Assembly: GCA_039621445.1 (NCBI GenBank)
Contig: CP154954.1
Coordinates: forward strand, 15,642,140 to 15,706,139
From: Euglena gracilis
Taxonomy: Eukaryota
Direction: 5' to 3'
DNA length: 64,000 nucleotides
Shown: positions 75 to 40,120 of the stretch, in pieces
Layout of the letters: the number at the start of each line of letters is the position of its first letter
Position numbering within the stretch: position 1 is the stretch's first letter
Position numbers and translations under genes: made by a program
The notes under the pieces: model-generated
Databases searched by the model: none
What the model saw: the letters and a program-made list of their open reading frames with translations, nothing else
Told to the model about the DNA's origin: nothing

Positions 75-3000
75 AACACTTGCATTGTCGCTTGCCCCGG
101 CCATAATCATCTGGGTGGTGTTCATGGACCTGATGACGTCCTCCGTGGACCTGCTGCGGGGTACCACGCGGGACTCAATGGACGTCATCGTACAAAATAT
201 CCAACAGTTGCTCATGTGCAGGTTGAGGCAGTCAAGAAGATCCAACATTCAACTTTGGATACCGGTTTTCCTTGCATCGAATGTGAAAAAAACAACCAAA
301 TTGTCACACTGAACCAGCAAAATGGTCGAAATTGCCCGAGTTGGTAAGAAATGGCAGAAAAATGTGTCAATTTCAGATAGTAAAATTGTCTGTTATCGCA
401 TTCTTTGAATCAAAGAAAAAAAGTCTTTGATTTGTTGGCAGGTATTTCTTACGCCGGACCCCTCCCTACCCCGGGTGGGTCCAGCCAGCCAGCACTTTTT
501 TTCCTGCTCCCAGCTGGTCTGTGGACCCTCCGGGGGGGGGGGGGGAGTTGAGAATTTTTTTTTGCAGCCGGAAAATTTTTTCGGACCGAATTGCCGAAAC
601 TTTTTGAAAAGGTGTCAAAAGTACCAGAAAGGGTCATTTTGGTACGCTTCCCCCCCCCCACCTCAAGAGCTCATTGCCTGAAAAATGCATCCCAGCTGCC
701 AGCTGGATTCGGGCTTTTCTTGCCTGTTTTTTTCGGGTTCCAGCCAGGTCCAGCGCGGCAGCCGGGTTCAAACCATCTGGACCCCCCCACCCCATAGGGG
801 GGGGGGGTCCAGCCAGCAGCTGGACGGCTGGACCTTCCCCCTAAGAAATTCCCTTGTGATTGTGGGTCCTTGGATTGACTGATTTGTCAATCCAAGTCAT
901 GGAGAGGGAGGCAAATGCCCTTGCCTGCTTGTGCCTTGGACACCCGTCTCATACATGGACCTGAAAACTCACACAGTTACCCCTGAAATTATAAACTGGT
1001 ACAGAGATTTACTGTGTTGAATCTTTTGTATGTTATTTATCATTGGCTTTTTCAAGGATAAAATTCAGATTCTCAAACAGGCCTAAAACCATTGATTTTG
1101 ATCCGTTTTGGTCAAAATGGCCAAAACTACAGAAATTACAAAAGCAGCTGAAACGTTTTTAAAAATGGAACACCCTTCTCAAGAATTTCAGTTTTCAACG
1201 TCAGGTCCAGCCCTTCCTTTTCCTGTTTTTTTATTCTGACCTTTCAGTGAACAAGAACACCACCCTAGCCCATTCTCAGTTTTTTTTTTTGCATTCCTCA
1301 AAGAAAGGTTGACCCATAACGTTGACCTGCCTCTTACCTCTATGCGGATTTGGTTTCTCTGAGGGGAGAGGTGTCCAAACAGCTTGTAAGTCTGTAAGTC
1401 TGTGAAATCCACAGGGCAACGTCGGGTGAACATATTTTTTTTTTAATTCGGTTGGCCAACCTTTCCAACCTAAACCCTAAACCTGTTTGGTGAGCCAGGC
1501 GATCGAACGGTTCGACGCTCGGCTGACGGAGGGCGAGAAGGAGATGACGGAGGTGGCTCTCATGGTGCAGGGCAGCGGGGTGCTGGGCTACGGCTGGGCA
1601 CCTGCAGCGAACCGAATGCGGGGTTGGGCTCCCCTTGCACCCCAGAGCCAGAATTCTTCAGGAGTGTCTTGAAAGCTCTTGCAAACTTTTTGTCCAGAAG
1701 ATTCTGGAACACTGCTGAGTTTGTAAAAGTGTTACCCTTTCTGTGAGCAAGGCATCCGGCGGACACAGAAAAAGAAGGGGCTGTAGCTTTTTGGCGGGGA
1801 CGGCAGTGTGCTAAAGGAGGTGCAAGGGAGCGGGTGTCCAACGACGACCTGCGACCCTCGCGATTTGATATCCCGCGGTTGGGCCTGCACACTTCTGTCC
1901 CACAGAGCTCATGGCACTCCCATTTTTGAAGCGCGAAGGCAAGTTCAAGACAGTTAGAACTGCGATGAAAGCTGATTTACAGGTAAACCCCCAAAATAAG
2001 GCCCAGGTCTTATCAGGGATATGTGCTTATCTTAAAACGGATGGTTGCAGATAACTAAGGATAACCTTGGATAAAAACTTGACCCACTATGGATAACCAC
2101 CAATCCTGGTCTTATTTTTGGGTCTATTGCTGGAAAACTCCAGGGAGGTCTTATTTTTTGGAGGTGTCTTATCTTTGGATTTTTTCTTGACCGAACCGAG
2201 ACAGAAAAAATGGCAACATTTTTTTTAGGTTCCCAAAAACGCCAAAAATTTTTTCCTCGGCGCTTCGCGCCATGTGTAAATTGGTATAAGCTGATATTTA
2301 CCATGACTAAGCATTTCAAAAAGCTGAAAATATTTGAAATTCCGTCATTTTGTGACTGGAATTAAGGCTTTTTTTGAGAAAAAATTTACCCTCCCTTCCG
2401 CTTGTGCTGCCAAGGGGGGGGGTCTTTTGGGGATCTTTTTTTGGATTTTTGCCATCTTTGGCCGACTTTTCCCATTTCAGCTGGAAGATACTCTGTGGGG
2501 GAGGTCCATTAACAAACGTTAGCCTGACTCTGCACAACTGGATCCAGACAACAGTTTCAGATGTGGAACATCTGGACTTGCGTGAGCTTTAGCCGTTTTT
2601 AAGCGGTGCTGAGCTCAATAAATCAAGTGTGCAGCAATGGTTTAAACCCAGTAATTTAAAAATAAAAAAAGTGGGAACGCCATGCCTCTAGGACCCCTCC
2701 CAGGAGACCCAATTACAAGAGGGACGGACCCCCGATTCCCAGGTTCCGCAGGATTTTTGTGAAATTTAGGGGACCAAAACATGTTTGATGTCAGAATTAG
2801 GATTAAGTTTCGGGTTAGGTTTGGAGATAGGGAAGGTTCCGGTAAGCTTAGTTATAGGAGTTTCAGGGCCCAAATTTAGCCTAAATTTAGGCTAAATTTG
2901 GGCTAACTTTAGGCCTGACTGTGCCTGGAATTGTCCCAAAACGGGAATGCAAACTCTAACCCTAGGCCTACTGCGAGGAATTACCTCAAGGATTACACAA

Positions 3001-6000
3001 AACGGTGGTAAAGTGGTGACACCCGCGTAAATGCCCCATACAAGTGGGACCCCACCCCAGGTCATGCCTCTGGGGAGGGGCCCAAAGGTATGGGGCTGCT
3101 CAATTTGTACACACATATTTTCATATACCCCCCCCAAATAATACCCCCGGGGTATTATTTTTTCGCCCCAAGTCCCAGCCCAAGGGGTCATAGCACCCCA
3201 AAATTTTGAGAATTTCCGAAGTCCTGTAGGAGCCAAAAAAGCGCCATTTGACCCCCTTTGGGCTCATTTTTTTTTGTATTTTCTTCTGGAATTTGCCATT
3301 TTTTTTTAAGAGGTCAGACGATACAGAAAAATCGATTTTTTTTCGTAATTCGTTGCCAGAGATTGTATTTTCAGGTCAAAATCCGGGCCTTTGGCCCGAA
3401 ATCAGGGAGGAGGTATTAACCTAAAGTCGGACCCGAGGGGGGGGGTATTATTTGGGAGGGGTATTATTTTGGGGGGGGGTATTATTTGGGGGGAGGGTTT
3501 ACAAGAATAGATAATTACATATATGCATGTATACATATGTGCACATGAATGTATATGCATATGTACATATTTATGTGCATAAAAAGGCACACGCGACCTA
3601 CATGTTTATAATAAAAAGCACAAAATAAACACATACACACAATGATAATAACAGAATATAAGAATTAAATAAAGGCTTATAAATAAAAACACCCTGTGCG
3701 CGGGGAGTTATTTTCAAAGTGTTCTTCATTGCTAGCAGAAAGGCGTTTTTTTTTTTGACTTGGGTCCAGTAAAACGGGTGTAACTTGTGCAGGCGCAACG
3801 TTAGAATCAAGAAACGGTTTTTTCGTTTTGGGGACCAGTAAAATTCTGCCCCCCCCCCCTCCGGGGGGTGTCCACTAGGATTTCCACCAGCTAAATTTGA
3901 ACTAGCTGCAGTCGATCCCCCCCCCCCCCCTGGGAGGTGGTCTGCAAAAACAGAAGCCTGCTGGGGTTATCCAAAGTTCCGGTATGAACTGATTCCTGCC
4001 CTGGGAGCTTTTCTTATATGGTCCCCCCTGACCCTCCCAAATGTCCATTTTTGAAGTTTTTTGAACAATTTTTTTTTGCCAGTAGGTAGAACAAAATCAG
4101 GCAAAAAAGCCTCAGTACAAACCCCATTTCCACCTTGGCGCAGGAGAAAAGGTGTTGCCAGTTGGGGTAGCAGGTAATAGGTAGTAGGCAGTAGGTTTCA
4201 GTAAGTAGGTTGGGGGGGCAGATTTTGGAAATCATTTTTTGTACTATGCAATGTACTCTCCACATATTTTTATTTTTTTTAACATTCCTCACATTAAGAA
4301 CTCATTTTTTTAATTTACCATCTCGATGCCCTTCGGGCGGCCAAACAGGTCCAGAATTCGTGGGTCAGAGAGGCGAGTTTTTGTCCACCATGGTGAGGTC
4401 TGCGTTAAGAGCTCAGCAACCCCCTTCTTTCTCTCTGTGCTTTCTTTAGCTTTCTGTGCTGAAACGGCTAGAGGTGCAGGCAGCCCCCTTCACTGGCCAG
4501 ACCTTCACCATGATGCAAGGCCACCGCTTCTTCTCCCAGGTGTCCGTGATTGGCAGCTACCTGGACCCCACAGAGGCCCAGGGGGACGGAGAAGCCTCCC
4601 TCCATTTGTTTCTCATTTGAACATTTGATTTTAACACGTGATGTACAAATTTTCGGTCTCTTGCAGGGAGTTCATTTCATTCAAGGTCAATCAAAAGGTG
4701 AGAGAATGCAGAAGATGCGGTTGTGGATGTGAAGGAGGATGGATGGATTGCCGCACAGTTGAACAAACATTATTTTGTCTATATTCCCATACCTCTCCGC
4801 TCGTGTAATTGACCCAAGTGCTCATCTGATTGTGAATCAGCTCACGAAGAAGACATATCTGCAAAGAAAATATTCCTCGCGATGTATTTGTGATTCTGCA
4901 ACTTTTTTTCGGGGGGTCCAGTTGGGCCCAACAGAGGTGGGAGTCAACTTTGGGGAGGGGGTCAAGTTGTGCTCAACAGCTCAGGGGGTCAATAACCGTG
5001 GGAGGTGCTGATTTCTGGTTGATGGGAATCAAAATTGTTGAGATATTTGGCCTGGCGTAACAAACGGTCTGATGACAAACACTGCGGATTGCTTTTGCCA
5101 ACAAGTATTTTTTTATTCATTTTCTGGATCCATCCTTCTGGCTTCCCCTGCCCGCAGTTTCTTTATCCCCACCTTCTGGGTGACGTGGGTGGCGTTCTAT
5201 ATGGATTTCCTCAACAACAGCTTCGGCACGCGCACACTGTACAGCACCCCATTGGTGATGGCCGCCAATGAGAAGAGTTCGACTTTAGGCTGGGCCCCCT
5301 CTGTGACTTTTTCAACGGCTTTTGCGGTTTGTTTCTCAGCCAGAAGTTTGACAAAGTTTTGTCACCCATGCCATTTACAATTCTGTCCTTCACTTGGGAG
5401 TGGGCTTGGAACTTTATTCCTGCAATCCCCATCCAGACAATAGATCCCTGACAAAATGACTGGATACCAGCAAAAGCCTTCGCAGGAGTTTCAATGACCG
5501 ACCCAAGAAATAAACCCCACAACCTCACAAGCTGAATATCTGTTGTTTCCTTTGCAAACATTTTGGACATAAGAAAATGGTTGAAATACCATTTTTTTGG
5601 TATTTTTGTTTCGGAGAATCTTTTGTAAACTTTCTGTTTTTTTTTAATGGACTCCCTGCAAAATTTTCTGCCAAAACTTTCCAGGAATCCAAGAAACCAA
5701 GAAAAACAGACCCAAGGAACGAAAGAGAAGCAGTAGTCTCCACCATACCTCAGATGAATGGCCCTGAAGACTGTACTGGATCTTTTTGGATTGACTTCAG
5801 CTGGTGAGGGGACCTACCAGGCAACATTACGCAGGTGAATCAGATTACTGCAAAGCCGAGGTATTTGATTCAATCACAAGTTGCGCCTGCTGCTTATTTT
5901 GACAGGCCCTCCCCTGACCCAAATGCCACACAGGCTGGATTACATGGGGCGGGACCATCCTTTAATTTTACTACCCCCCCCCCCCGCCATCTGGGAAGTT

Positions 6001-8272
6001 CTCACCCCCCCCCCCCACAGGGCCTTGTCACCTTGGGTCATGCGGGAAATCCACCACCCAGAAAATTGTTCCCAGAAAATTGTGCTCCAGTTTGTGCTTG
6101 CTGACTTGTCAGGTACTCACTTCAAGAGGTGGAATCCTTTTTTTGTCATTGTCTTCTTTCCCTTGATTACCTTTGGTTCGTTTTCGAAAAAAAAACCGAA
6201 AATTGGCTGAAAATGAAATGAAAAAAAAGGTGGCCGCCAAGAGGGTATCTCAAGTTTTTGCTGCAGATATATTCTGATTTGTTTACGTGGATGCAGAATT
6301 CACTCCTACCCCTCATTTTTGCCAAATGTTGATGATAGATGCAGAATTCACTCCTACCCCTCATTTTTGCCAAATGTTGATGATCTGCTACCGCCTGAGA
6401 TAATATGTGTTTCTTTTGTGTTTTTCTGTACTGATTTTCTTTTGGCTTACGTAATTTTTAGAGCTGGAAATGGGGATGAAATGTGGATCTAACTAAAACC
6501 TTAGTGCCAGAGAACGAGGAGGAGGAAGAAATGAGAGGTGAAATAATTATGCCATCAGGGCTGTTTTGAAATTATGTTCGGATCTAATAAGGTATTGATA
6601 TTTGTTGTCAGGAATTGTTGTCAGTTTGGCTAAACAGAATGCACGTTGTTTGGGGAACAATTGTCGTGGAATGCTGTGGATTAATTGCCGCTCAAGAAAC
6701 GAAACGAAGCCCGCTTTTGTGTTCTTCGGACGGGCAGGGCAAAGTCAGTGTAGGGCCTCGACCCAGGCTGGCGAAGTGGGTGGACGGCTGGCTGACCACC
6801 ATGGCGTGGAACCGGTTCACAGGGCAGGTGGAGCTGGTCCTCCGGCAGAGCACAGGGGCTCCCTTGTGCCACCCTCCCTTCCGGATGGGTTCCCCTCTCC
6901 GACTTCCCCGAAAGTGCATTCGAAGTACGTCCTTTTTTGACACACTTACTTTAGATTTAGATCCATCACGTACCCCCCTTGTGTGCGCTGTGGCTGTTTG
7001 TTTGGTGCCTTTTATCCCTTCTTTGGCCTGGCGCTGTTTTTCGCCTCTGGTCTTTTTTTTTGGTCTCTGTATGTGGAGGTGGTAGGTACACCCCCCAGTC
7101 TATTAGGAACCCCGCCAAAAATTGCTCTCTCCCCAAATAATAGCCTCCCTCGAATAATGGCCTCCTGGATTTTTGTGGGTATTCTGAGGGCAGTTCTGTA
7201 GGGACAATTTTCAACGCAAAATCTAACCCTGCCCCCCCCCCCCGATATTTTAACCAATTGTCTGAACAACCTTATTATGTTTTATGGGGTTTAGATTGCA
7301 GAGATTCTTTCTCACATTGTTTCCCCTCGAACCACAAGATCTGAACCAACCCCCTCCCCCCTAAATACCCCTCCCCCCTGAAATTGTCATCTCGGAAAAC
7401 TGTCACCTGAGCCCCGTGCTCGCTGACCTGTCACCACGGGCACCTGTCACCGACCTCTGTAGTCGCTGATTTGTTGACTTGGGAGTTTATATGTGGGTGG
7501 GGGAGTTTAACAAGAAGCTCCGTCCTATTTTTCAAAAAACGTGACGCCAAGATATGCATCTCCGTATTTCCAGGTGCAGTCCGAGAAAGATTTTTTGGTT
7601 GGAATTGGTTTTTCTGGGTCTCTTCGGGGGCATATGGTTTGGGTCTCTGGGAAGAGGGGGAGTCAGAGCTTTGGCACCAAAACCTGTAGGTTTACCTCCT
7701 TTGGGTAGAGTCTTGTATCTAACAAGCCACAAAGACTGGAGCTGTGTGGTCAGTGGGGTAGATCCAGCCGTCGAATCACGCAAAGTGCTTGATTTGGCCC
7801 GATTTTCAAATATAGCCAGGTCGATTTGAAGTGTGTCTGGGTGCCAAACCACAATCCAGTGATGTGAATCCCGTGTGTCAGCACGCAATATATCCTTTTT
7901 CAACCACAGTGTCGGGTTTCACAAGCCCTCCCTCCCAACCTAAGTGCCTGGAAGGGGTTTGGGAACTGCTCCAAAGTACAGGTATGACCCCGACGCAAAG
8001 CCGTTCCTTCCAACAGAACTAGTTTCCAAAGAGTGTCCCCAAGGCTGTCCCTGGGCCCAAATCGCGGCCCAGAACGGGACGGGGATACAGCTGACCATCA
8101 ACATTGGGGCCGCGACCATCAGCGATGAGCTGCGGAGCCAACTGAAGGGGTTCCCCGATGCCCAAGCGCCTCCGGCAGGTCACCTCCTCCTCCTCCTCAA
8201 TTCAAACCACGTGGTATTCAGGCCTTGGTCAAGAATCTCTTAACCAAAAAAGCCCAGCCAGCCAGCCAGCCA

Positions 8273-8303
<31 letters not shown>

Positions 8304-11300
8304 AGCACCTGTATTCCAGCACGCTTTCCAGCCAGCCGGTTGACCCCCCGGAGCCTTTCAAAAACCCGTGCTTAGCTGGCGCACAAATACTTCCTGTTGT
8401 ATGTCTGACCGGGTGTTTTATTAAAGAACACACACTTTTTTTTTATCTCGATGCCACACATGTGTAAACTCTTTTAACTTTCCGCGCCGTTTTTGCGGGC
8501 CTGAATGGTGAGACAACCACCCTGGGAGCCAGCCCAGTGGGGGTTGCTTGCCAGAGACCGACTGGTGCTCTTTTTCCGCCAGCCGCATGGCTACATGATA
8601 GCGCCCGGCGATGGTTTGCCACCGTTGATTTGCATCCACCCAGTCAACAGTTTGAAGATGGCCACCCAATTGCCCACCAACAGTTCACGGTGACAAAAAC
8701 AAAGGGGAATCCATGAAATATTAACCACTGATAACCGGGGGGGGGGTGCCAAATCTTCAAGAACTGTCGCTAACCACTGGGAGGTTTCCGTTCAATTCTG
8801 GGTGGTCCTCCTGGTAGTGTGTGGGGTTCAGCGGTGAGCTAAGCGTCAGATTAGGCGTTACTGCAAAACCACCAAGCCCTGACACCCACACCAGTCTGCC
8901 CCCCCCCCCTCGAATAGAAGCCCTCTCCCCAAATCTCCCAATAACAGGCCCTCTGGGCCCTCCCCCCCCAAAACCAAATGACAGCCCTCCCCCCCACTGG
9001 CCCAGCACTTTCGACCAAACACTACCCAAAATTGAGAGGAAATCTGCAAAATAGGTACATTCCAGAAAAAAATTGATATCTGTCATCCTTGGACCATCCG
9101 CCATCCACCCATAGCATCAAAAGTCACGTTTTCGACCTTTTTTTTTTTTTACTTTCAGACGCCGTTCGATCCCCGGACCACCCTCAGCTGCCTTTTGGCC
9201 GAAGTCAAACAAAGATACCCAAATAGAAGCCGTCCCCCATTGTGACCGAATATTAGCCCCAGGGGATTCTAATGGGGGGCCGTTCATACTGCCGCCATGT
9301 GGGGAGGTGTGTGCAGCAACAAACAGTACCCGACCCCCCCCCTTGTCCACTGACCACCCCTGAGTACCGACCACCCCCTTGTCGGGAGTTGCAGGGGGTG
9401 CATACGACCCCCCCCCCTGGTTGAAGGTTGTGGGTAACCTGGGAAAAACAGGTTTTTTTTTGGCACCCGCACACAAACACACGAACACACACATATGCAG
9501 AACACAGCGTTAGCATATTCCTAAACTTGCTGTTAAATGAATGCGACAGATACCCCTTCAACAGAGTGCCGGCATTCAATGCTGCGGGGGCTGTACCCGT
9601 AGCAACAGCTTGGGTCGGGGGTATGGTACAGACGGGGGTGGGGCTGGCACAAATGACTGAGAACTGAGGAATGGCCCAAGTCGCCCAACCCCTCACCCGA
9701 CCCCCCACCCCCCACATCAGGGGTTGCAAGTCAGATGATGCTTATGAGCTCCTGGTCGGGGGTTGTTGGAAATCGGTCGGTGGGCAAGGGGGGGGGGGTG
9801 TACAAAGCCAAAATGTTTTGGGCGCAGTGGGTTGGGGTGGTTGACCTTCCGAAGGCCATTGCTGAAGTGGGGTGGAGCAACTTCTGCAGAATTTTTTGTT
9901 TGATTGTTTCCATGTGCCAAGAAAGAGAAGGGCGATATCACCACAACAGGTTTCCTTTGGTAGGCAGATGTTTGCAATTGCAGTAGCAGTTGCAGTTTCT
10001 ATTGGCTGGAAAGGTGTCCAGCGTTGCGGCCTCTTTTGTCTCATTTGGCCGGGCGGGGTTTGACCCCCTGAGACACCGCCGCTCCCAGCCTCCCACGGGA
10101 AGTATTTCAGCCATAGCGACGTGGACGCGCGCTACATCAACCCGCTGCTGCACCCCCCGAACATCTCCGCCTACAGCCTGTGGACTTGCCTGCAAAGCAA
10201 GGCTTCACTTAAAACCTGTGTGACCGCGGCCCCAGGGGGGGAGGTCGGTTTTCGAGGGTGGGTGGGTGGGTTGGGGCCTTGGGACCCCCCCCCAGGGGTG
10301 GGATACACCTGGGTCAGGTTATTCCCCTGCTGAAGGCTGGACCGGATATTTTTTTTTTCAGCGGTTTCAATTTTGGCTGGATTTTGGGTGGGTGGTTGGT
10401 TGACCCCCGGCGGCGGGGGAGTCGTGGGTGGGTTCTCAAAAAAATGGGTGGGCGGGTTTGGGCCCGGGGAAAAGCCCCCCCCCCCCTCTGGGGTCACTGA
10501 GTGATTCCATGCTGCAGAGCAATGACGCCCTCATCGCCCTAGCCTGCCAGCAGCTGTATGGCAAGTACCAGGCAGGGGAAGGGCTCGCATCCTTATTTCA
10601 AAAGCACCCATGCGCAGGGTCCATCCACCCCTGCAACAAAAGGAACAACTTCACCACACATGGCGTGCTAAGAATCCAGCCACACACTTTCACCGAATCT
10701 TCAACAAGAACTTCTTTTACCCGTCAAGAAGGGGTGAGGTGGCTGAGGTGGGCATCTGGCTGGGAAGAGTTTGCAGCTGGACAATGGCTCAGCCTTGGGC
10801 TCAGATCCAGCATATCTGGTCTCCACTCAGGGATTTTGTTTAGTCTTGGACCCGGGGGGGGGGGGTAGGGTGGGTGGGTCCGGCCGAGATTTTTGGCATA
10901 TTCCGCGAGTTTTCGACCATTTTTGAGGAAAATTGAGTGGGTCCCCCGGGATCCCCGCCCGGTCTGAAGAAATCCCCTGTCTCCACTGTGTTGATTGAAC
11001 CGCCTTTGGGTCTTGGGTTAAAAGCCCTGCGAAACGAAAAACCATTTACTTTCCTAACAAATATACCGCCCACCCTCGGGAAACTATCATGTTGAGAAAT
11101 TATCAAGGTCTGCGGTACCGGCTGACAGTGGCCTGGAGGTTGGGGGGTGCTTGAATGGAAAGAAAGGCACTTCCTCTGCTGCCAATCATGGACAGCCATC
11201 CCCGAGATGAACCAGGAGATGGTGCTGGCGGGCCAGCGGTACTGGGTGGCCACCGGCTACAGCTCCGGTGATCGGGCCGGTGATGGCTGGATGCCTGGCT

Positions 11301-14300: not shown

Positions 14301-14749
14301 CTGGGACTGCAGATTGTCTATTTCCATTCTTTGTTTCGTTCGCTTAATGACCGCCCTGGGCAGGCCAGAAGCGTCTGCCTTTTGCTTCTGTTTCCACGGT
14401 TTCATTTGTGGTGCTGATCAGGCCAACGGGACGGGCCCTGCCCCCGATGGACCGCATCGCGCAGCTGCAGTTCGCGACCACCGCCCCGCCGCCCACCGTG
14501 TTCCGGGAGCTGCACCGCTTCCAGGCCTCCTTCGTCCAGATGGAGCGCGGCCTGCAGGCGTTCGGGAAGTTCGTGCCGCACGGCGTGGTGAAGGTGCTGG
14601 GCAGCCCGGGATTACAATTTGGGAGATGTGCCACGTCTGTTGTTGAATTTCTGTTTTCTTCTTTTCTTCTGCCACCCCCCCCCGGTTGAAGTGCAGTGTC
14701 GCAGATAGACCTGTTGCAGCAAAGCGTGCGCGCTGTGGGTCTCTGAACT

Positions 14750-14791
<42 letters not shown>

Positions 14792-17700: not shown

Positions 17701-20700
17701 AGAAAGTGTTCACCCAAGTCAGTTAAGAAACCTGCACTCCAACAAACGTGCTCACCCAGTGTCCAGCATCCTCCTCAACTGCGACTAATATGGTGGTGCG
17801 GGAGCAATAATCTAAATTATCCAGGAGGGAAAATTGCTTTAACTGGCTGGTGTTACTCACCTAAAAAAACAGGTGTATTTTCTTTTGTAATATGAGTGTA
17901 CTACTGAGAATTATTTTTTTTTTCATAATGTATATAATTTGGATGACGTCAGTTATTTGAAACAACTCTTCACATGTAATTTATGAATTTTTTTGGGTGT
18001 GCAATTTTGTGTTTCACCGTCCGCAAACAGTTTCAAGGATTTAACTATTGATATGTAACACTCAAAACCGCGCAGAAGGAGGCAGCCTGCCCCCAGGATG
18101 CTGACAATCATGTTTGCGGACATCGAGGGCTTCTCCACCATTTGTGAGAACGAGTTCCCCGCCGTTCTGGTCTCCGTGTGCACGGAGTACTTCGAGGCCA
18201 TGTGCAGTGCCCTGGGTCCCCAATGCCGCCACGGAGCTGCTCGAATTTTTTTTAAATGGCAATATGCTGGGTTGAAAAAAATACCCCCCATTTCCAGGGG
18301 TTGGTCAAAGATTATGAAACCACTAAAAAACAATCGCTCACCTCCAGAAAAACCACCCAGTCAGCACCGTGGGTGAGTGGGTTTTCGAAAAAAAAATGGT
18401 TTTGTGGGTTCCCCCAAGGTGCCCCCCCCCCCCTGGGTCACTAAGTGAATCTATGGTCACAACCCCCTGGGCCACATTTCTCCTCTACTTTCGGTGCCAA
18501 CTCATTTTGCGCCTCCTTCTGGGAGTTTGGTAACAAATTGTGTGATGCCTTTTTTTCCGCTCACCTTTCGGAGGCATTCCTTTCCTCTCCGGGCTGGACT
18601 CAGCTGTCCAACATCGTAGGACGCAACGGCACCATTGACAAGTTCATTGGCGACTGCATCGGCAGCGTTGCAGTGGGTGGTTTTGAAGTTGCGTCTGTTC
18701 AGGGGATCCGTCCATTAAATGTTATGCATTTCATGTGTTCAGTGATCCCTCAATTTCCATAATTATCGACACTCATTTTATTCGTTTGTCAACAACACTC
18801 GTATGCTTCTTTGCACCGGACCATCCATTCACGATCCTGTCAGCCTGTGCGACCCCCGGCCCTGTGTACGTGTCACCGCCACGTTCACAGACACAAATGG
18901 CCAGAGGCCAAAGTCACGCCAGGCCGGAAGAAGGGATGAATGGCACGAAGCAAACAGCCACAGTGCAGTGGCGTTCACTTCCACAGCTACCTACCCCAGG
19001 GAGATTGTCACGCCAAGAACCTGTCAGGGTCCCTGGTCCATGACTGGAATTTGGAGGAAGTTGAGGACCAAGGGTCCTTGGTCCCGGCAAACTTCAAGAC
19101 CCAACCCCGGACATTTTCCCGGTCCTGTCAGGTGACAGTTTCCCGAGGGGCATGCCAGACTCCACTGCCGTGCTGTGCCATGGCGATGTGGAACGCACCG
19201 GACCGGCTCCCCAACCACGAGAGGGACGCCGTGGCCGCGTCGTTGGCGATGCAGGACGCCCAGGGGCTGTGCCGCGAAGGCAACTCGCGTGCGGGGTGTG
19301 GCGGACGGCAGGTGTGCAGTGTGGTGCGGGGTGCACGGTGGTGCGGGGTCTACCCCAGTCACATCGTGGCCCCCCGGTGTGGTCCAGACAGGGAATTTTT
19401 TACGTTTGGACCCCCGGGGGGGAGGGGGGGGGTAGGGTGGGTGGGTCTGGCCGAGCCCCCCCCCCGGGGAGGGGGGTGGGATATACTTTTCGGCGCCGCA
19501 GGCGCCGAAAAAATTCTATTTTAGCACTTTTCGCGATTTTCGGACATTTTTTTTGTGGGTCCCCCGGGACCCCCTCCCCCCCCCCGGTCTTAAAAAAACC
19601 CCTGGGCCCAGAAGCTGGCCCAGAAACCCATCTCCGGAACAAACGTCCCCCCCACCCGCCGACCCATTTCTGTTTGCCCGGTTTGCCGGCCCCTGCCGCT
19701 TGCGTCATGGACCTGCACCGGTCGTGGAAGGACCGCGGGCTGCCGGTGCTGAAGTTCCGCGCGGGCATCCACACCGGGGAGTGCCTCGTGGGCAACTTCG
19801 GCCAGGGCCGGTCGCGTGCCTGTCTTCGGTGCCCTCTGTGCCCATTCCCGGTTTGTCAAATCACCCCCATTTCCATCGATGGTTGTATCGTGGAATGGCA
19901 TCACCCTTGCTACCCCATGAGCGAGCCTCAGGTGTTCGTGTTCCTCTAATTATGCTCCCCCCGGACCTCCCTGGAGTCAGCCTCCCCCAGGATTGCAACC
20001 TGACAACAGCCTGATTGGCCGGAACGTTGAGACCCTGACACCGAGGACCCGCTGTCGGGGAGGAGTGAAATGAGCGTTCCTCAAACGTGAAAGTTTTGCA
20101 GAAACTTTCAAGCAGATGCCAGAATCAACCCGTGGATGCAATCACGGGATTGTCCCGAGCTGACAGGATACCACTCTTGCTGCCAATCTCGTTTACATTG
20201 GGACTGTTTCCCGCTCGTCTGGCCAACAGCTCCGGCCCTGGGGCGGGCTGCAGCTACCGCGTCAGCTACACCTGCCTGGGCGACGGGGTGGCCCAGCCCC
20301 CTCCCGATTGACCCACTGCTCACCTGCTGTGTGGAGTTGACCTCTGCAACCAAAATAATAGTGGCAAATGGCCAAATTTGAATACATCTGGCAATCAAGA
20401 ATTGTCTCCCCCTCCATAAACCATGTAATTGAGTCTGGGTCAGAATGGAAAAAAAACACCCAAAATGACTATTTGTTGGAGATTTTTGGAGATTTTGTTT
20501 GTGGCTGTACCCACCTTTTGCCCGACTAAGTACCGACCACCCCCCCCAGTCGGGGATTGCAGGTCAGGGGGGTGCGTGACCCCCCTGGTCGAGGGTTGTA
20601 GGAATCGGTGGGTACAGGGAGGGGACTCTTTGGAAACAGTGCAAGTATTTGGGCTTCAGAGTTCTCAATATGTGTTCCACCTGGATGTAACATAAACTGC

Positions 20701-23700
20701 AAGGCCTGCGTGTTGGCTTGGTTGGGCAAAAACAGCACGCTGGCATGTGGTGGTGAGGGCTTCCAGCCAGAACAAGGTTCCTTACCATGCAATCACTGAG
20801 TCACTGGCCGACCCCCCCCCCCCTGGGTGGGTGGCTGGTTTTTCAGAGTAACTGACTGGTTTTTGGCCTGGCCCCCTCCCCCCCGGGGGGTTCGCAAAAA
20901 AACCACTAAAGTGACCCGGCGCCGAAGGTGCCGGACAAAGTTTTTGGCTTTTTTTTCATGTGTTTTTGGTCAAATTTCCTTTGGATTCTAGAGTAGCCGA
21001 CCCCCCCCCCTTCCCCCAGGGGGTGGTGACTGACTGGTTTCCCGGAAAAAGTGACTGGCTGGTTTTTCGAAGAGTGGAGTGACCCCTCCCCCCGGGGGTC
21101 GGTAAAGCATTGCATGTTCCTTACCTGAGGAAGGGCGCTGCCTCCCAACCTGTCCTCTCGCCTGGAGGCACTCAATAAAAAGTTTGGGGCCAGGGTGCTT
21201 CCAGCTGGAGAGCCTCTTCAAAGGCTTGTCCCATATCGTACCGTCCCTCTCCTGGCCAGACAGCAGGAAATGCACTTGAAAAAATAACCCAATGAAAGAT
21301 TTGTTTCTGCACAAGAGAATTTCCTGTCAATCGCACATTGTTGCATTATGGGTATCCCAGGACAGTGCTCATGTGAATATGTGAATGAAAGGAGGCTGGT
21401 TATGGGAGCAGGCTTTTGCTTAGTCGTGTGCCCACCTCACGGGGGGGTGCTAGGGGCAGGCATCTCGTCCGACCCCCCCGGGGGGGGGTCGAGTTTTTGG
21501 GGGGTGCCTGCCCATAGCAGGCACCCCCTCCGCCCCTGGCGCCGAAGGGCCCGGAAAAGGCCATTTTCAATGAAAAATTTATGGGCCCCCCTGGACCCCC
21601 CGGAGGGTGTGCCTGCTAGGGGCAGGCACCATATAGCACCCCCCCCTCCCCCCCCCCGGTCGGCCTGAATGGGAGCATAGCCAGTCTCATTTTGCGCTTT
21701 ACCGCAGAGCCACTACTACCCCCCCCCCCCTATGTCCAACGACCACCCCCTGGTCAGAGGACACCTTTTCGGAGGTTTGACCAAATTTTTGGTCCCGGCG
21801 TGAAGCGCCGGGACCAAAAATTTTGCCCAAAAATTGGCCAAAGGTTACCGGTCATTGGACATAAGGGGGGGGGTAGGGGCTCTGCGGTACCCCCTTTTTG
21901 GGACACAGTCTTGTAAGTTGTCCGAAACTTTGTGTGGCGACATATGTGGAGAGTATCCCCGGTGGGGAATCACACACCAAAATCCATTTTTCACCAGTCT
22001 CCGTGTATTTTTTTTGGAAAGGACTTCATTATTGTCATCTTTTTTTTAAAAAAAAGAAAACGCCCTGCCGAGGACGTTCATCTGCGTCTCCCACTCCACG
22101 TACGAGGCGTGCCAGCACGACTTCCATTTCCGGAGGCTGGCGAAGGTCACGGTGCCTGGCAAGGCCACCCAGGGACCAGTGGTTCTCCCGCATCGACGAG
22201 TTTTTTTTCCATCTTTTATTATATTTTTCAGCCTTCCTTCGGGTGGCTGGATGGTGATTTTTTTTTTGGCTTTCAGAGATGCAAAACGGGCCAAAAATGA
22301 GCCAAAGTGGGTCAGAAAAGGGCTGGGGCGTATTTGGGGTTTAAAGCTGACTGGTTTTTCAATAAAAAAAGAAGTGGCTGACTGGCTTTTGGAAGTGTGG
22401 AAGTAACCCCTCCCCTCCCCTGTTGGTCGATAAAATTCTAAACCACACAAATTTTGGATGGTGAGGGAGGGGGAGTTGGTGCAGTTGGTTTTCTGGGTCG
22501 TGCTACAAAGGCGTTCATTTGCTCAGCCCTGCCAGAGAGGTGCTTCCGGTGTACGAGGTGCTGTGCGAGGCGGGATGCGTCGAGACACGGACCCCCAAGG
22601 CCGCAGACCTTCCTGGACAGACAATTGCTTAAGCACTGTCCCACCCCCCCCCCCCCCCCCGGGGGGGGTGGGTGACTGGTTTTTTCAGAGTGACTGACTG
22701 GTTTTGGGCCCGGACCCCCTCCCCCCCCCCGGGGGGGTCGGCCAGGAGTGGGCAAAAGTGGCTTGAGTGACCCCGGCGCCGAAGGCGCCGGAAAAAATTT
22801 TTTGGCCTGAAATGGCCTAAAGTGACTGGAAAGTGGCCGTTTTTCTGAGTGGCCGACCCCCCCCCCGGGGGGGTAGTGACTGACTGGCTTCCCAAAAAAA
22901 GTGACTGACTGGTTTTTAAAAAAGTGGAGTGACCCCCCCTCCCCCCCCGGGGGTCGGTAAGCAATTGTATGTTCCTGGAACAGTCGGCGTCGACGTGCAG
23001 AGAGAGCCTGTGAAGCCGGCCAATCGGTGTCAAGTCTGGCTTGTGGTCCCCCAATTTGAACTCCGGACTATTCTCTCAACCTGCATGGGGTCCAACGTTT
23101 TTGTTCATCCAGTGCACATTCCCAAGTCAGATCAGTGACCAACCTCTGAAGTTGCAATGCCGATGTTGCAGAGTGTGGGTTCAGGGTGCCCACCCCTCCC
23201 CCTCCCGGGAAACTGTCGCAGAAGGTGGGAGTGGCCAACCAGTCATGAGAGGAAGTTTCCAGGGTCCTGGCACTGGCCGACCTGTCGAGTTAACTGCTTC
23301 CTCGGGGAGGGGGGTGTTAGGCAGGTGCTTATTCTGCTGCTGTTCTCTGGTTTCGTTTCACAAACTGTTTTTTTTTTGTTTGATGGAATGTGGCTTAATG
23401 CGTGCGATCGGCGGACACTCATTGCCTCCGCCCAAGGAGCGGCGGTACTCCCCGGCGCAGCGGGTCAGCGTGGCGGACGGCCTGCTGTTGCGCGGCCCCA
23501 CCAAGACTGGGAACAAACCGGCCGACCAGTCCCTGAATGGTGTCCCCCCTTCAAGCCTGCCCATGCGAAGCACGGAGGGTGAATGGTGTGGCTTTCCCCA
23601 CTGAATCTGCTGCATTTTGAAGTTTTTTGGGGGGGTGAGAAATGATTCATTAATCCCACCGTCATCGAAGGGAGATACAAACAGAAAAGTCGCGTGGTTG

Positions 23701-26020
23701 GCAATGATACTTTTCAGGTTTTTCAAAAGATAATCATTTCTTCGATGCAAAAATCCGAGTTATGGCATTCCCCTGTTATCATTTTAGGAGTATTAAAGGA
23801 GGTGGTTGTATGGCAAGTGTGTATATATGTAAGTCTGTGTGGAAATTATGCAAATACATGGCAGCCTCGGTCTATTTGCCCCCCCCCCCGGGGGGGGCAA
23901 GCAGAGTGATCAATGGGGGGGGGGTCGTGTGGAGGGACCCGTGTCCGACCTTCGGGGAAATTTGGGTCTAGGGTTAGGGTTCCAACCAGATACCCAGAGG
24001 ATGTACATTTTTAGGAATTTAGGCAGACGTCAGGCCGCATGTGGGAGCCAGTGGACCGAATTCAGGGGAATTCTTTTTGGTAAAACATGTATTCAAAAAT
24101 CTTCTGAAAATGGGACCTGATTGCGGGCCTAACTTCGTCCTAAAATGGACCAGTTTTCGGGGCAATCCCAACCCTAACCCTATGCCAACAATTTAGGGGG
24201 AATCCTCCTTGATTCCACTGCCGGTTTCCCTGAAACCGCGTGTTTCCCAGCGCCGTGGGGCCAAAACAAAAACAGAAATTTGGATCTGGGTCCCCCATAC
24301 CAGGGGGGGGGGGACTCAAACAGGAAAAATTGCTGTGGAAAAATTCAGAACAAATTTTTGTTTAGGATTATCCCCACAAATTTTGCGAAATATAAATTTT
24401 CGGCACTCCGTCAATTCAAAATAAAATAATTTTTTGCCTTATTTTTTGGAGTTTTTTTTTTGCAATTTTTTTTTTGGAGTTGTGACAACCTCGAATTTTG
24501 GTGTGATTTCTCTTGTGTTTCCCTGAAAAGTTGGTTCACAAGATTTTTTTGTTCAGAATCTTCCCTGGGGGCCCGCTTTTCAGCGAGCAATTAGTAAATA
24601 ATAAATAAGCGAGCGTCCAATAATTTTTCCCGTCGGCATTTGTTCCTGTTATTTTCCCCCCGGTATCCCCCCCCTGATCATTCTAATTTCCCCCCCAGGT
24701 GAGAAAGTAGAGTGAGGCTGCCAGATATCCATATACATATACACACATACATGCATATACAGAATAACATATGCATACATAAACCCCACCCCTCACTTAT
24801 AACCCCCCCCACTTATAACCCCCCCCACTTATAAACCCCCCCCCTCGGGCCGACCAGCCAAACCGGATCGATCCTATAACCCCCCCCCCCCCTGGGGAAG
24901 AAAAATGGAAACCGCCGGGGACGATTTTTTTTTTCAGCCGCAAACCACTGAAAAACTGATTTTTGGCATTTTTTTGAGACCGACCATCATCATAATGCCA
25001 TTTTTGACCAAGTTTGCCAAAAATTGCCAATTTTAGGGGGTTTCGAGGGCATTTTTTGGGGTCGGATTTTGACCAACAATTCCGTATCCTATAAAACCCT
25101 CCCACCTATAACCCCCCCCCCCTCAGGCCGACCAACTAAACCGGATCCTATAAACCCCGGGCAGTTTATAAGTGGGGGGAGGGGTTTACACATGCATCAG
25201 GGGGGGGAAATGCGCTGCGCAGTTTTGCCCATTTTTGTCAATTTTTCAAAAATGCGCATTTTTGTGCATTTTTTTGCGCATTTTCCCCATTTTCCCACTT
25301 TTTTTTATACACTTTTTGGAGGCATTTTGTCCATATTGTCCATGTTGTCCACATTGTCCATATGTCAAAAACAAACTTGACATTGGTGTTATTCAACACC
25401 GTTCTTCAACACCAATCAAATCACATGCTCACCGAATTTTGCCCACGTTCAAGTAACCCATTTCTATAACCAACGAACCCATTTCCGCACTTTTTTTTCC
25501 ACCCAAGGGACCCGCCTCAAGAAAAAAAACCCTTGGGTGATGAGGTGTGGGTACTCATCCAATGATGATGAGACACTAGGGTTTTCAGAGACCCCACATC
25601 GAATCCTACTCCCTTTGTCACCAGTAAGGGGCAACCATGGCTGACATTGTTGGTTATGGTGAACAGAGAGTGACGCCTTGCTCGTGCATTTTTTTTTATA
25701 TACCAAAAATGCCTTTATTTCAGCTGTTTTTGATGACTTTGGTTTAATTTTGGGCTTATTGTTGGAAATTTTTCTGAGTCCTTTTTCCCTTATGAATGTA
25801 CAAACTCAGCGCATTTTTTGCGCATTTTTTTTTGCGCATTTTTGCGCATTTGTTTTTTCCGGGGGCCGTCCAGAGCATCCCCCCCCGCATACATGCACGC
25901 ATACATACACACAAACATGCACACATGCATGCATACATGCGTACATTCGTATATGCATACAACAGACAGACAGACAGGCAGACAGATAGACAAACAGACA
26001 GACAGGCAGGCAGGCAGAAC

Positions 26021-26052
<32 letters not shown>

Positions 26053-27839
26053 TACACGCATACGTACATGTAGCATATTGCACTCACAGACACATTCAAA
26101 AACAAGCACACACATTGCCATGCATTTGGATAATATGTTACGCACCATCATACACTTTTATTTTCCCTTGTGGGAAGCATGCCTATTTTTTTTTTTTGAC
26201 AGGGCAATTCTGCTCGAAATATTTATTTCCTCGCGTAACAAGTTTTTTTTTTTAAAGCGTCATGGCACGAACTCGCGAAACGTTGCGCACGATTTCGGTA
26301 ATTTCATCTCTGAGCCATGTGCTTTCCTTCGCTGGGCTTGAGCGACCAACACCAGGTAGGAGTTGTCCCCGGCCTGCCCCCGGCCAGGTGACCTATCACT
26401 GGACACTTGTGGACCGCGCGGTGCTCCTGCAGTCAGCCGAGGGGTACGAGGAGGCGTATGCCGCCATGGTGGTTGGCGGCCAGTCTGCTGTGCCGTGCCA
26501 TGCCGTGCTGTGCCGGCTGGTTTTAATGTGTGCTCTCGCCCAGGTGTCGGATGTTGTGTGTTTCGGAACTGGATGAACTGGGCCAAATTGTGCCATTCCG
26601 ATGCCTGATGGAATGCTCTGATGAGATGTTCAGTTGAGACAGCACCCAGGCGACCTAACTTGCACTCAATCTGTTTTGCATGCCATTGCGCATGCGCTCA
26701 GCATTCGCTGTCCTGCAAACCCACCCTTTTGGTTCTTTAGCCCTGTGGCAACTGTTCCTTGTTTTGTCCAGTTTTAAATCCAATTCCGAAATTCCTTGAA
26801 ATGGGACAAAACACCCGTGCTCAGTCCCACGTTTTTGTACCCCTCAATCTATTTCTGTCCCTCCTGTGCAAGCCAGGTGAAACTTCTGCCCTTTGTGTTG
26901 CTTTGTGAAGTGCTGTGGCATGTATAGGGTTCCTGCCAAGTCATCCAGGGGGTGGACTCTACATCTACACTGTTCCCCCCCTTGTCTAAGCCCCCCCTCC
27001 CCGGTGATGACCCATCTTTTTAAAGGTCATCTTCTCGCGGAGGCTTTTTTTGTGTGCTTTTTTAGAAAATTTTCTCGAGAGTTTGAAAATTATTGAAACC
27101 TCTGAAGCCTGATATGGTGAGACATTGTTGATTTTTGCATCCAAATGCCTGTGAGTGCAATAGTGGACCTCCAAAATAAGGGTAACCCCCCCTAATAGAA
27201 GCACGGGGCCGCTACAAGCGCAGGGTCCAAATAAAAGCGCACCCCCCCACCGCCGAAAGCGGCGGTCTGCTACAAGCGCACCCCCCATTTTGATAGGATT
27301 TCTAAAGGAAATCAACAAAAATCGCGCAGGTACGGCCCAAATAGAAGCGCACCCGTGCTTCAATTGGGGGGGGGTTAATTTTTCCTTTTTGGCGTGAAGT
27401 GCCGGATTTTTTTTTTGCAAGTCAAAATTTCCCCCTTGTCCAAGTACCAGCCCCCTGATGCTTACAAATGTTTTCCAGTGCTTAGACAAGGGGGGGGGGG
27501 GTATGCTCCCGATTCTCTGGCACTCCGTGTTTTCAGCTTCTCCCAACTCTGAAATAGCCCGGCTTGCACGTCTCATTTCCAAGGCACGGCGGTCTGCTGG
27601 GGACCAACAACGGGCGCGGCAGCTGCTGGCGGCCAACCCGCTGCTGGACCCGCCGGATAAGGCGTGGGCCGCCCTGGCTGCCCAGCCAGGGCTCAATGGG
27701 AATCCCCGCAACCCTGTGGGTGGTGGGTGGGGGGGGGCCGACCCCCCCACCAGGCCTTCCCGCACAGCCCTGCGCCCAGCTGGAGCACGCGGAGGCCGGC
27801 CGGCCATGGGACGGCGTGTTCTACTTCAAAGAGAAGTGA
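75..27839 (+). CDS. Membrane receptor-type class III adenylate cyclase (TM - extracellular region - TM - HAMP-like - cyclase - C-terminal helical tail), 5'-partial, about 29 exons
   Basis: Inferred exons: 75-215, 1492-1591, 1846-1881, 4486-4575, 5156-5287, 5823-5900, 6765-6849, 8059-8159, 8556-8602, 10087-10194, 10517-10569, 11184-11269, 12917-13026, 13799-13894, 14446-14598, 17392-17431, 18095-18208, 18610-18660, 19180-19257, 19701-19799, 20246-20290, 21147-21187, 22073-22166, 22537-22614, 22977-~23021, ~23416-23503, ~26378-26477, 27602-27683, 27778-27839. Joined, they give TIMFADIEGFST...GTIDKFIGDCIMAMWNAP...FRAGIHTGECLVGNFGCSYRVSYTCLGDGVNLSSRLEALNKKFG...WDGVFYFKEK*. A few boundaries (5287-6765, 23021-26378) are approximate. 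Confidence 0.9.
6290..6384. repeat. 48-bp tandem duplication
   Basis: gatgcagaattcactcctacccctcatttttgccaaatgttgatgat occurs twice. Confidence 0.9.
10195..10516 (+). other. Nonconventional intron with residual 8-bp TSD
   Basis: Flanks are ctgcaaag (10190-10197) and ctgcagag (10512-10519), with imperfect terminal pairing. Removal gives WTCLQSNDAL. Confidence 0.75.
10828..10979. mobile_element. CAGGG-ended MITE with 8-bp TSD (hAT-like)
   Basis: cagggatttt ... aaatcccctg, with TSD tctccact on both sides. Confidence 0.8.
13380..13758. mobile_element. CAGGG-ended MITE with 8-bp TSD (hAT-like)
   Basis: TIR cagggtttgatataagga / tccttatatcgaaccctg, with TSD gcacaggg / ccacaggg. Confidence 0.85.
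13799..13894 (+). CDS. Adenylate cyclase exon: second transmembrane helix
   Basis: FVILGVVSAVAVLLPLSVGLWLATRLYMLARG is a hydrophobic stretch and is in frame with both flanking exons. Confidence 0.85.
13895..14445 (+). other. Nonconventional intron with 13-bp terminal stem
   Basis: aag-CAGGGCCTGTCCC ... GGGACGGGCCCTG-ccccc|G. Splicing is in frame (ARG|MDRIA). Confidence 0.85.
14446..14598 (+). CDS. Adenylate cyclase exon: HAMP-like/helical linker
   Basis: MDRIAQLQF...FRELHRFQASFVQMERGLQAFGKFVPHGVVKVL resembles the HAMP-to-cyclase linker ending F.KFVP. Confidence 0.85.
14752..14866. repeat. (GT)n/(GCGT)n microsatellite
   Basis: Direct inspection. Confidence 0.95.
18095..21187 (+). CDS. Adenylate cyclase catalytic-domain exons
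   Basis: Metal-binding Asp residues (FADIEG, IGDC), adenine-specifying Lys (DKFIG) and Thr (YTCLG), and transition-state Asn/Arg (VNLSSR) are all present. Confidence 0.92.
19389..19604. mobile_element. CAGGG-ended MITE with 8-bp TSD; related copy at 35717-35989
   Basis: cagggaatttttta ... taaaaaaacccctg, with TSD ggtccaga / ggcccaga. A very similar body occurs at 35717-35989. Confidence 0.8.
20786..21116. mobile_element. MITE, same family as the intron at 22618-22971
   Basis: TIR catgcaat / attgcatg and perfect TSD ttccttac (20778-20785, 21117-21124). The body is collinear with 22618-22971 (gtgactgactgg motifs, cggcgccgaagg hairpin, agtggagtgaccc...gggggtcggtaa end). Confidence 0.85.
21409..21667. 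mobile_element. CAGGC-ended MITE with 8-bp TSD; related to 29531-29741
   Basis: caggc...gcctg, with TSD tatgggag / aatgggag. It shares the ggcaggcacc..atagcacccc motif with 29531-29741. Confidence 0.75.
22615..22976 (+). other. Nonconventional intron that is a complete MITE (element 22618-22971)
   Basis: TIRs cagacaattgctta / taagcaattgtatg (13/14) and a perfect 8-bp flanking repeat ttcctgga at 22610-22617 and 22972-22979. Removal restores the frame (DLP|GTV). Confidence 0.8.
25963..26052. repeat. (CAGA)n microsatellite
   Basis: Direct inspection. Confidence 0.9.
26975..27501. mobile_element. PolyC/polyG-capped MITE (ttgtctaagc TIR); partial copy ~33608-33900
   Basis: Cn-ttgtctaagc ... gcttagacaa-Gn. 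A homologous body occurs at 33608-33900. Confidence 0.7.
27684..27777 (+). other. Short nonconventional intron with residual 8-bp TSD
   Basis: agc-CAGGGCT...AGCCCTG-cgccc, with flanks tgcccagc / cgcccagc. Removal gives AALAAQLEH. Confidence 0.8.
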
Positions 27840-28364: not shown

Positions 28365-28661
28365 CAGGCCGTATGTTAGTCGGGTGCCGACCCCACCCCG
28401 GAGGGGGGGGGGGTGCCTGCCTGGGCAAGTACTCCAAGGCACAAAAATCCGACCCCCCGGTTGGGGGAAGGGCACTCGGTCAAAAGTGCCTAGCAGGCAC
28501 TCCTGCGCCGAAGGCGCGGAAGGCTCAAACAAAGCCTATTTTCAAGGAAAATGGCCTATTTTCTGAGGAAAGTTCCTGGGCACACGCTGAAATCCGACCC
28601 CCCCCGGGGTAGGCACTCAAGTCCGGACCCCCCTCCCCCGGGGGGTGGTAAAAACAGCCTG
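28365..28661. mobile_element. CAGGC-ended MITE with perfect 8-bp TSD
   Basis: caggccgt...acagcctg, with TSD gctggggc on both sides. An empty-site paralog lies near 32535-32580. Confidence 0.85.
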
Positions 28662-29530: not shown

Positions 29531-29741
29531 CAGGCTTTTTTTTTTTTAGTTGGGTGCCTACTCCACGGGGGGTGGGTGGACAGGCACCCCTGTCCGGGAA
29601 ACGATCCCGTTTTCTTTACCCTGTTGGCAAGGACCCAGCCGACCCTGGGTACCCCGGGCTGCCCCCCCCCCCCCCCCGGGGGTGTGCCTGCTATGGGCAG
29701 GCACCCCATAGCACCCCCCCGGTCGGTAAAAAAAAAGCCTG
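29531..29741. mobile_element. CAGGC-ended MITE with 8-bp TSD
   Basis: caggcttttttt ... aaaaaaagcctg, with TSD cggagaac / cggggaac. Confidence 0.8.
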
Positions 29742-31820: not shown

Positions 31821-31846
31821 ACACACACACACACACATACGCATGT

Positions 31847-31897
<51 letters not shown>

Positions 31898-40100: not shown

Positions 40101-40120
40101 CGTTCCTGTTCGATCTTGCC

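Follow-up and report, generated by a model that had tools for sequence, protein, structure and literature searches.

How the nonconventional introns of euglenids arise, and how they are removed from the message, are questions that have stood open for decades, and their origin was still called unclear in papers of 2025. Both questions are raised by an adenylyl cyclase gene in the nuclear DNA of Euglena gracilis, which occupies positions 1-27,840 of the 64,000-nucleotide stretch of contig CP154954.1 analysed here (hereafter the window). A reading of this stretch from its letters alone (the original prediction) had proposed that most of the resolved cyclase introns begin 3 nt before a paired triplet and end 5 nt after its partner and that, as 3 and 5 sum to 8, splicing would remove a transposon with CAG...CTG ends together with exactly one copy of an 8-bp target-site duplication (TSD). 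The gene has this geometry, the window contains free CAG...CTG elements flanked by 8-bp duplications, and two of the cyclase introns carry such a duplication in the predicted register. On balance, we favor the reading that the introns fit a transposon footprint, in which a 3+5 cut set by a hairpin excises CAG-ended insertions with 8-bp TSDs, and that some of the introns were derived in this way.

Intron boundaries and geometry of the cyclase gene

The gene is recorded as follows:

1-27840, plus strand: class III adenylyl cyclase gene, at least 27 exons, left end running off the window

The translated first exon matches E. gracilis transcript-derived proteins in EukProt. One of these, P0008 (EG_transcript_7248, 591 aa), for which a match to the adenylate/guanylate cyclase catalytic domain (PF00211) was obtained, is identical to 20 exons between positions 124 and 19802, save for two residues. 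The rest of the gene is covered by the paralogues P0001, P0005, and P0006, leading to a C-terminus (...GVFYFKEK) at position 27836. A further protein, P0009, was the sole match in a search with the C-terminal cyclase exon and was dropped, as it is a genomic open reading frame (ORF) that reads through the intron and is therefore uninformative on splicing.

Boundaries were drawn from protein evidence alone. Each junction was slid between the neighbouring exons and every position that reproduced P0008 exactly was kept, which defined 19 introns, and another six (19800-20245, 20291-21146, 21188-22072, 22167-22536, 26478-27601, and 27684-27777) were defined with the paralogues, for a total of 25; an intron between approximately 22618 and 26345 was omitted from the set. 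Where several positions were compatible with the protein, the paired register was picked. Eight of the introns named in the original prediction (216-1491, 4576-5155, 6850-8058, 8603-10086, 11270-12916, 13895-14445, 14599-17391, and 18209-18609) are compatible with P0008, and the other three (19800-20245, 20291-21146, and 26478-27601) fit the alignments to P0001, P0005, and P0006.

In 19 of the 25 introns the bases at +4 to +6 are fully paired with those at -8 to -6, leaving a 3-nt spacer on the donor side and a 5-nt spacer on the acceptor side (N3/N5), as had been predicted. The paired triplets are predominantly CAG/CTG (12 introns), followed by CGG/CCG (three) and TGG/CCA, CAC/GTG, CAA/TTG, and AGC/GCT (one each). 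Four introns have an N3/N6 layout (the three so described in the original prediction and 5901-6764) and two are atypical (5288-5822 and intron 10, 10195-10516). None of the 25 chosen boundaries has GT-AG ends, and no compatible position across the 19 introns defined by P0008 would give GT-AG or GC-AG. The terminal helices are 3-13 bp long, and a purine is present at intron position +1 in all 25 introns and at downstream exon position +1 in 24. Three introns can be placed in only one way that suits the protein, and two of them show exact CAG/CTG pairing in register, an outcome expected by chance at approximately 1 in 4096 per position by our arithmetic. The N3/N5 geometry is real and far from chance.

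The same geometry is an already published and bench-tested code (PMC12501133), which confirms the pairing of +4 to +6 with -8 to -6 as the established euglenid rule that the original prediction took it to be, and the introns of the cyclase gene are ordinary members of the nonconventional euglenid class. The 3-nt and 5-nt spacers have been defined and demonstrated experimentally, with the length of the donor spacer found to be strict in knock-in assays, while one extra base is tolerated on the acceptor side (PMC12501133). This tolerance bears on the N6 introns, for which either 9-bp TSDs or boundary drift had been suggested. Their 9-mer identities are 4, 0, 1, and 1 of 9, and no element in the window passes with a 9-nt flank (see below), so the 9-bp duplication found no support, and the simpler reading is boundary drift by one base in the 3' spacer, which the published code tolerates (PMC12501133).

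The 25 introns are listed below with their layout and, where given, the identity between exon -5 to intron +3 and intron -5 to exon +3 (8-mers, in the N3/N5 register; 9-mers for N6 introns).

216-1491, plus strand: intron, N3-CAG...CTG-N6; 9-mer identity 4/9
1592-1845, plus strand: intron, N3-TGG...CCA-N5; 8-mer identity 5/8
1887-4481, plus strand: intron, N3-CAC...GTG-N5; 0/8
4576-5155, plus strand: intron, N3-CAG...CTG-N5; single protein-compatible position; 1/8
5288-5822, plus strand: atypical non-GT-AG intron; single protein-compatible position; without clean N3/N5 pairing
5901-6764, plus strand: intron, N3-AGG...CCT-N6; 0/9
6850-8058, plus strand: intron, N3-CAG...CTG-N5; single protein-compatible position; 2/8
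8160-8555, plus strand: intron, N3-CAA...TTG-N5; 4/8
8603-10086, plus strand: intron, N3-CGG...CCG-N5; 3/8
10195-10516, plus strand: intron 10, N3-CAA...ATG-N5; 8-mers CTGCAAAG / CTGCAGAG, 7/8
10570-11183, plus strand: intron, N3-CAG...CTG-N5; nested element 10828-10979
11270-12916, plus strand: intron, N3-CGG...CCG-N5; 2/8
13027-13798, plus strand: intron, N3-CGG...CCG-N5; nested element 13380-13758
13895-14445, plus strand: intron, N3-CAG...CTG-N5; 13-bp helix; nested element 13995-14358
14599-17391, plus strand: intron, N3-CAG...CTG-N5; 1/8
17432-18094, plus strand: intron, N3-CAG...CTG-N5; 5/8
18209-18609, plus strand: intron, N3-CTG...CAG-N6; 1/9
18661-19179, plus strand: intron, N3-AGC...GCT-N5; 2/8
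19258-19700, plus strand: intron, N3-CAG...CTG-N5; nested element 19389-19604
19800-20245, plus strand: intron, N3-CAG...CTG-N5; 3/8; slides by 3
20291-21146, plus strand: intron, N3-CAG...CTG-N6; nested element 20615-20825; 1/9
21188-22072, plus strand: intron, N3-CAG...CTG-N5; 3/8
22167-22536, plus strand: intron, N3-CAG...CTG-N5; 0/8
26478-27601, plus strand: intron, N3-CAG...CTG-N5; 5/8
27684-27777, plus strand: last cyclase intron, 94 nt; AGC + 86-bp element + CGCCC; 8-mers TGCCCAGC / CGCCCAGC, 7/8

CAG-ended elements and their 8-bp duplications

The whole window, a sample of 64 kb, was scanned for CAG...CTG pairs 40-5000 bp apart, the terminal inverted repeats (TIRs) were scored over 12 bases and the outer 8-mers were compared, with expectations taken from 52 shifted registers. 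Among the 280 pairs with a TIR of at least 10/12, eight have flanks identical at 7/8 or better, compared to a mean of 0.25 and a maximum of 2 in the shifted registers; at a TIR of at least 9/12, 12 elements have such flanks, with 2.33 expected. The signal is confined to one flank length: of the lengths k = 4 to 12, the only peak is at k = 8 (8 observed, 0.15 expected), with a single element at k = 7 and none at k = 9-12. Of the 64 possible terminal triplets, GGG, CCC, TAT, and ATA match or exceed the score of CAG, which by our reading comes from poly-G/C and TA-rich repeat tracts. The flanks are perfect (8/8) for 10828-10979, 28365-28661, 32357-32580, and 54790-55167. Independent repeat finding recovered the 8-nt repeat at 32349/32581 and, at 10819/10979, a 9-nt repeat consisting of the eight flank bases and the last base of the element. 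With inverted-repeat ends and duplications that peak at k = 8, these are DNA transposons with 8-bp TSDs that resemble MITEs (miniature inverted-repeat transposable elements). The elements (no strand assigned) are:

10828-10979: MITE-like element, CAGGG...CCCTG ends; TSD TCTCCACT 8/8; related to 19389-19604 and 35717-35989
13380-13758: MITE-like element, TIR 11/12; TSD 7/8
13995-14358: MITE-like element, ends CAGGGCGGTC...; TIR 11/12; TSD 7/8
19389-19604: MITE-like element, TIR 10/12; TSD 7/8; 84% identity with 35717-35919
20615-20825: MITE-like element, TIR 9/12; TSD 7/8
28365-28661: MITE-like element 3' of the cyclase gene, TIR 9/12; TSD GCTGGGGC 8/8; flanks non-coding
29531-29741: MITE-like element, TIR 12/12; TSD 7/8
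32357-32580: MITE-like element, ends CAGGGCGGTCC; TSD CTGAGTGC 8/8
35717-35989: third copy of the 19389 family, flank identity only 5/8
36235-36788: MITE-like element with AT-rich interior, ends CAGGGCGG...; TSD 7/8
54790-55167: MITE-like element, TIR 10/12 (30 nt at 70%); TSD GTTTCTGT 8/8

The elements range from 86 to 554 bp. All 22 element ends begin with CAGG, and the fifth base is G in 16 (CAGGG) and C in the remaining six (CAGGC). The 50 ends of the cyclase introns have C, A, G, G, and G at the first five bases in 42, 34, 41, 33, and 28 cases, respectively, and the element termini look like intron termini. The elements at 10828, 19389, and 35717 are related copies with different flanks, and those at 13995, 32357, and 36235 have a 16-bp terminal repeat in common. 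The layout of this repeat, CAGGG followed by seven variable bases and (T/A)AAG, is also seen at 13380, 19389, and 35717, which hints that one transposase may recognise several families. Five elements are nested within cyclase introns and the others sit outside of coding exons, with ORFs across their empty sites having a GC content at third codon positions of 0.38-0.68, compared to 0.85 for the cyclase exons.

A longer candidate of 3,815 bp (28849-32663; TIR 10/12, flanks 7/8) would enclose two of the smaller elements; its two long ORFs have no match in Pfam, and it may be the expected chance hit. Outside of the window, 101 stretches of metagenome contigs matched a 19-letter pattern of the terminal repeat, none with a partner end and matching flanks, and were rejected as chance matches in GC-rich contigs.

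Proposed transposon footprints in the introns and competing explanations

The introns and the free elements could be connected by a simple mechanism. In a nonconventional intron the hairpin, usually CAG with CTG, places one cut 3 nt upstream and the other 5 nt downstream of itself, and short non-autonomous DNA transposons, with CAGG(G/C) inverted-repeat ends like those of the introns, make 8-bp duplications upon insertion. An insertion in an exon would be transcribed as an 8-nt copy, the CAG...CTG element, and a second 8-nt copy, with two identical 8-mers flanking the hairpin, and the 3+5 cuts would fall after base 5 in both copies, removing the element and exactly one copy to leave a scarless message. 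The arithmetic of the original prediction is sound in this respect, as an element that is cut out from 3 nt before its start to 5 nt past its end takes 8 nt with it. At least some nonconventional introns would have arisen by such insertion; in older introns the intron-side half of the duplication would have been lost by drift, and introns would also grow through the nested insertion of like elements. As the dinucleotides at the two junctions would be copies of the same two bases, the published purine requirement at the cut (PMC12501133) would be satisfied on both sides or on neither and could act as a filter on the insertions that survive in exons. The free elements are without a purine bias, with a pyrimidine followed by a purine at duplication positions 5 and 6 in two of ten. 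As the spacers differ by 2 nt, the hairpin would come out with a 3' overhang of 2 nt, which, as a speculation, recalls the cuts made across a helix by dimeric nucleases.

Two introns have a 7/8 duplication at the predicted register, a degree of identity seen in none of 342 cross-intron control pairs. The last cyclase intron (27684-27777) is AGC followed by an 86-bp element with inverted repeats (27687-27772) and then CGCCC, in the N3/N5 register. With these 94 nt excised, ...AWAALAAQ runs directly into LEHAEAG..., and the two are contiguous in three transcript-derived paralogues; as the intron length is not divisible by 3, retention of the intron would destroy the conserved C-terminus. The second is intron 10 (10195-10516), and both introns are presumably spliced at these sites. 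In support of the footprint reading, direct repeats of eight nucleotides have also been published for the junctions of a strain-specific gapC intron in E. agilis (PMC4770533).

Several results weigh against a transposon footprint. For the 19 N3/N5 introns, the mean 8-mer identity is 2.74/8, compared to 2.67 for the cross-intron control pairs, and the 11 introns of the original prediction have 25 matched positions out of 88, such that the excess of identity on which that prediction had staked itself is not general in the cyclase gene. An identity profile from -15 to +15 has no rise over -5 to +3 relative to the neighbouring positions, a duplication is unseen in 23 of the 25 introns, and a junction can slide in 13 of 25, which is approximately the chance level by our estimate. 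The junctions themselves derive from protein identity (19 introns) or paralogue similarity (six, including 27684-27777) and not from RNA reads. Within the window, the last-intron element has a single partial relative, for which no partner end turned up. The junctions of intron 10 carry a direct repeat of 11 nt, mismatched at one base and longer than the 8 nt expected; the register of this intron was picked post hoc among 12 protein-compatible positions, and its triplet pairs at only two of three positions (CAA...ATG). Among the listed elements approximately 0.2 to 2 could be chance hits, for a survey of one 64-kb window, and a Pfam search of ten long ORFs in the window returned only an LSM14 domain and no transposase family. 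What survives of the TSD idea in the original prediction is the existence of CAG...CTG elements with 8-bp duplications and of two introns with a 7/8 match, without a general excess of 8-mer identity.

The absence of that excess is in line with coincidence, where the form of the RNA-cutting machinery alone would dictate the 3+5 distances and elements with 8-bp TSDs are a separate transposon population, found only occasionally in exons; most of the introns would then have other origins, such as double-strand-break repair with filler DNA, the spread of excised intron circles or the decay of conventional introns. Knock-in assays show efficient splicing with arbitrary spacers, which makes the duplication dispensable for splicing (PMC12501133), and the 8-nt repeats of the gapC intron of E. 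agilis were read by their authors as the product of break repair (PMC4770533). Coincidence does not account as readily for the CAGG(G/C) common to element and intron ends, which extends well beyond the triplet, or for a duplication in register in two introns. Further, if the two spacers added up to anything other than the length of the duplication, frame-shifting scars would remain, making the 3+5 match what selection would keep, and we judge coincidence to be unlikely. A related possibility is that the 8-nt flank repeats are themselves footprints of repair, through microhomology or fill-in at staggered breaks, and not TSDs made by a transposase, as was proposed for the gapC intron (PMC4770533). 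In a study that still calls the origin of the introns unclear, 84.4% of E. agilis introns, the conventional ones among them, are reported to have short direct repeats (PMC12501133). The repeats in the window are sharply fixed at 8 nt, abut conserved inverted-repeat ends, and differ between related copies at different sites, a combination that is the hallmark of cut-and-paste insertion and renders a repair origin highly improbable.

If the elements are transposons, the superfamily that moves them can be considered separately. The term hAT-like reflects only the length of the TSD and the terminal bases, and membership in hAT is putative. The 8-bp duplication agrees with hAT, as k = 8 is the only signal and four elements match at 8/8. 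The ends of hAT elements follow the consensus pyrimidine, A, purine, any base, G, which fits 16 of the 22 element ends (CAGGG), while the six CAGGC ends miss the last position. The target sites of hAT favor T at position 2 and A at position 7, a preference not evident in the small sample of ten duplications. Alternatively, the elements may be true transposons that belong not to hAT but to another superfamily with 8-bp TSDs, such as Merlin, of which two families are reported from E. gracilis itself, both with 8-bp duplications (PMC8101967). The elements in the window fall within the 8 or 9 bp of Merlin, and a hAT transposase was not found among the ten long window ORFs scanned. Merlin ends have a conserved terminal GG (PMC8101967), whereas the duplications here directly abut CAG and CTG; with the fit of 16 of 22 terminal pentamers to the hAT consensus, a superfamily other than hAT appears somewhat unlikely.

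The footprint reading can be extended beyond the two introns, and most cyclase introns may share a transposon origin. In its widest form, nonconventional splicing would be an RNA-level excision matched to one superfamily of CAG-ended transposons with 8-bp TSDs, with the 3+5 sum maintained by selection, most such introns being decayed copies and the purine requirement acting as a filter; we put this forward tentatively, as possible rather than probable. The equality of 3+5 and 8 is a simple numerical rule that lends itself to a check, both on the 649,158 E. agilis junctions already published and with the available knock-in assay. If the rule holds, it would explain how a genome tolerates massive transposon insertion in coding sequence, and the search for the cutting enzyme would narrow to one that cuts at set distances measured from a hairpin.

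Neighbouring DNA and comparison with known systems

To the right of the cyclase gene, an LSM14-domain gene is found near 40.1 kb (40120-41760) and appears to have conventional GT...AG introns (GAAG/GT...CAG/GG and AAG/GTAC, exon-intron borders marked by slashes), in contrast to the cyclase gene, where the 25 defined introns are exclusively nonconventional. An exon at 56735-56878 matches Ufd2P_core (PF10408, E 1.2e-06) and probably belongs to a gene for a ubiquitin-chain elongation factor on the plus strand at approximately 53-60 kb; a protein search with this exon found no E. gracilis transcript. A TTAGGG-like, telomere-type run lies in non-coding DNA at 55425-55475, and the partial copy of the last-intron element (55359-55421) is just before it. 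Introns and spacers contain long GT/CA-type microsatellites (14700-14950, 25760-26150, and 31730-32040), with CVCVCV-like ORF translations, and scattered palindromes of G-runs and C-runs. Low-complexity tandem arrays at 61600-62450 and 63300-64000 (ORF entropy 2.3-3.1) match parts of 28849-32663 and 14750-14870, and a recurring repeat family of the GGGGGTATTATTTGGG type occurs at 3400-3500, 12800-12880, and 37760-37970.

Euglenid nonconventional introns leave the pre-mRNA as circles, after the conventional introns. The cyclase introns share with them the non-GT-AG ends, CAG/CTG pairing, spacers, and purines (Milanowski et al. 2014, 2016; PMC12501133), as well as the CGG/CCG variants, and differ in nothing. 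The proposal of a MITE-like origin dates back to 2014, at a time when transposable elements were not known in euglenids (PMC3935182), and a 2024 review by the same group treats CAG/CTG as a TIR and describes TSD-like repeats as frequent at the junctions (PMC11282704). In the literature searched, for which coverage was incomplete, no link between the 3+5 spacing and an 8-bp duplication or hAT was found, nor any account of euglenid elements that are free, CAG-ended, and flanked by 8-bp duplications. Relative to the euglenid literature searched, the addition made here is the equality between 3+5 and the length of the duplications around free CAG...CTG elements of this genome, together with concrete elements whose ends are right and whose duplications are sharply 8 bp long, and two introns that keep the footprint.

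Among the known transposons, non-autonomous maize Ds and other hAT elements, with TIRs of about 11-16 bp, have the 8-bp duplication in common with the elements in the window, whose terminal pentamer is the same as that of maize Ac/Ds. In a case ascribed to Giroux et al. in 1994, Ds reportedly came to act as a new intron. A difference from the maize system is that neither a transposase nor an autonomous partner was seen for the window elements.

The introners of Micromonas and Aureococcus and the transposon-derived introns of Fritillaria, Amoebophrya, and Polarella arise through the same exon insertion by a transposon with short inverted repeats, and one copy of the duplication is removed with the element to restore the message, as is proposed here (PMC11282704). 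An intron made of a transposon copy and one duplication is found in the cyclase gene at 27684-27777 and, less cleanly, at 10195-10516, and is unseen in the other 23; introners also occur as many introns copied from one family, and in the window each intron-forming element has one partial relative or none. Introners are spliceosomal, with splice sites derived from the element and its duplication and with duplications of 3-5 nt (PMC11282704), whereas for the introns described here structure directs the removal, with the cuts at set distances from the hairpin, and the duplication is 8 bp.

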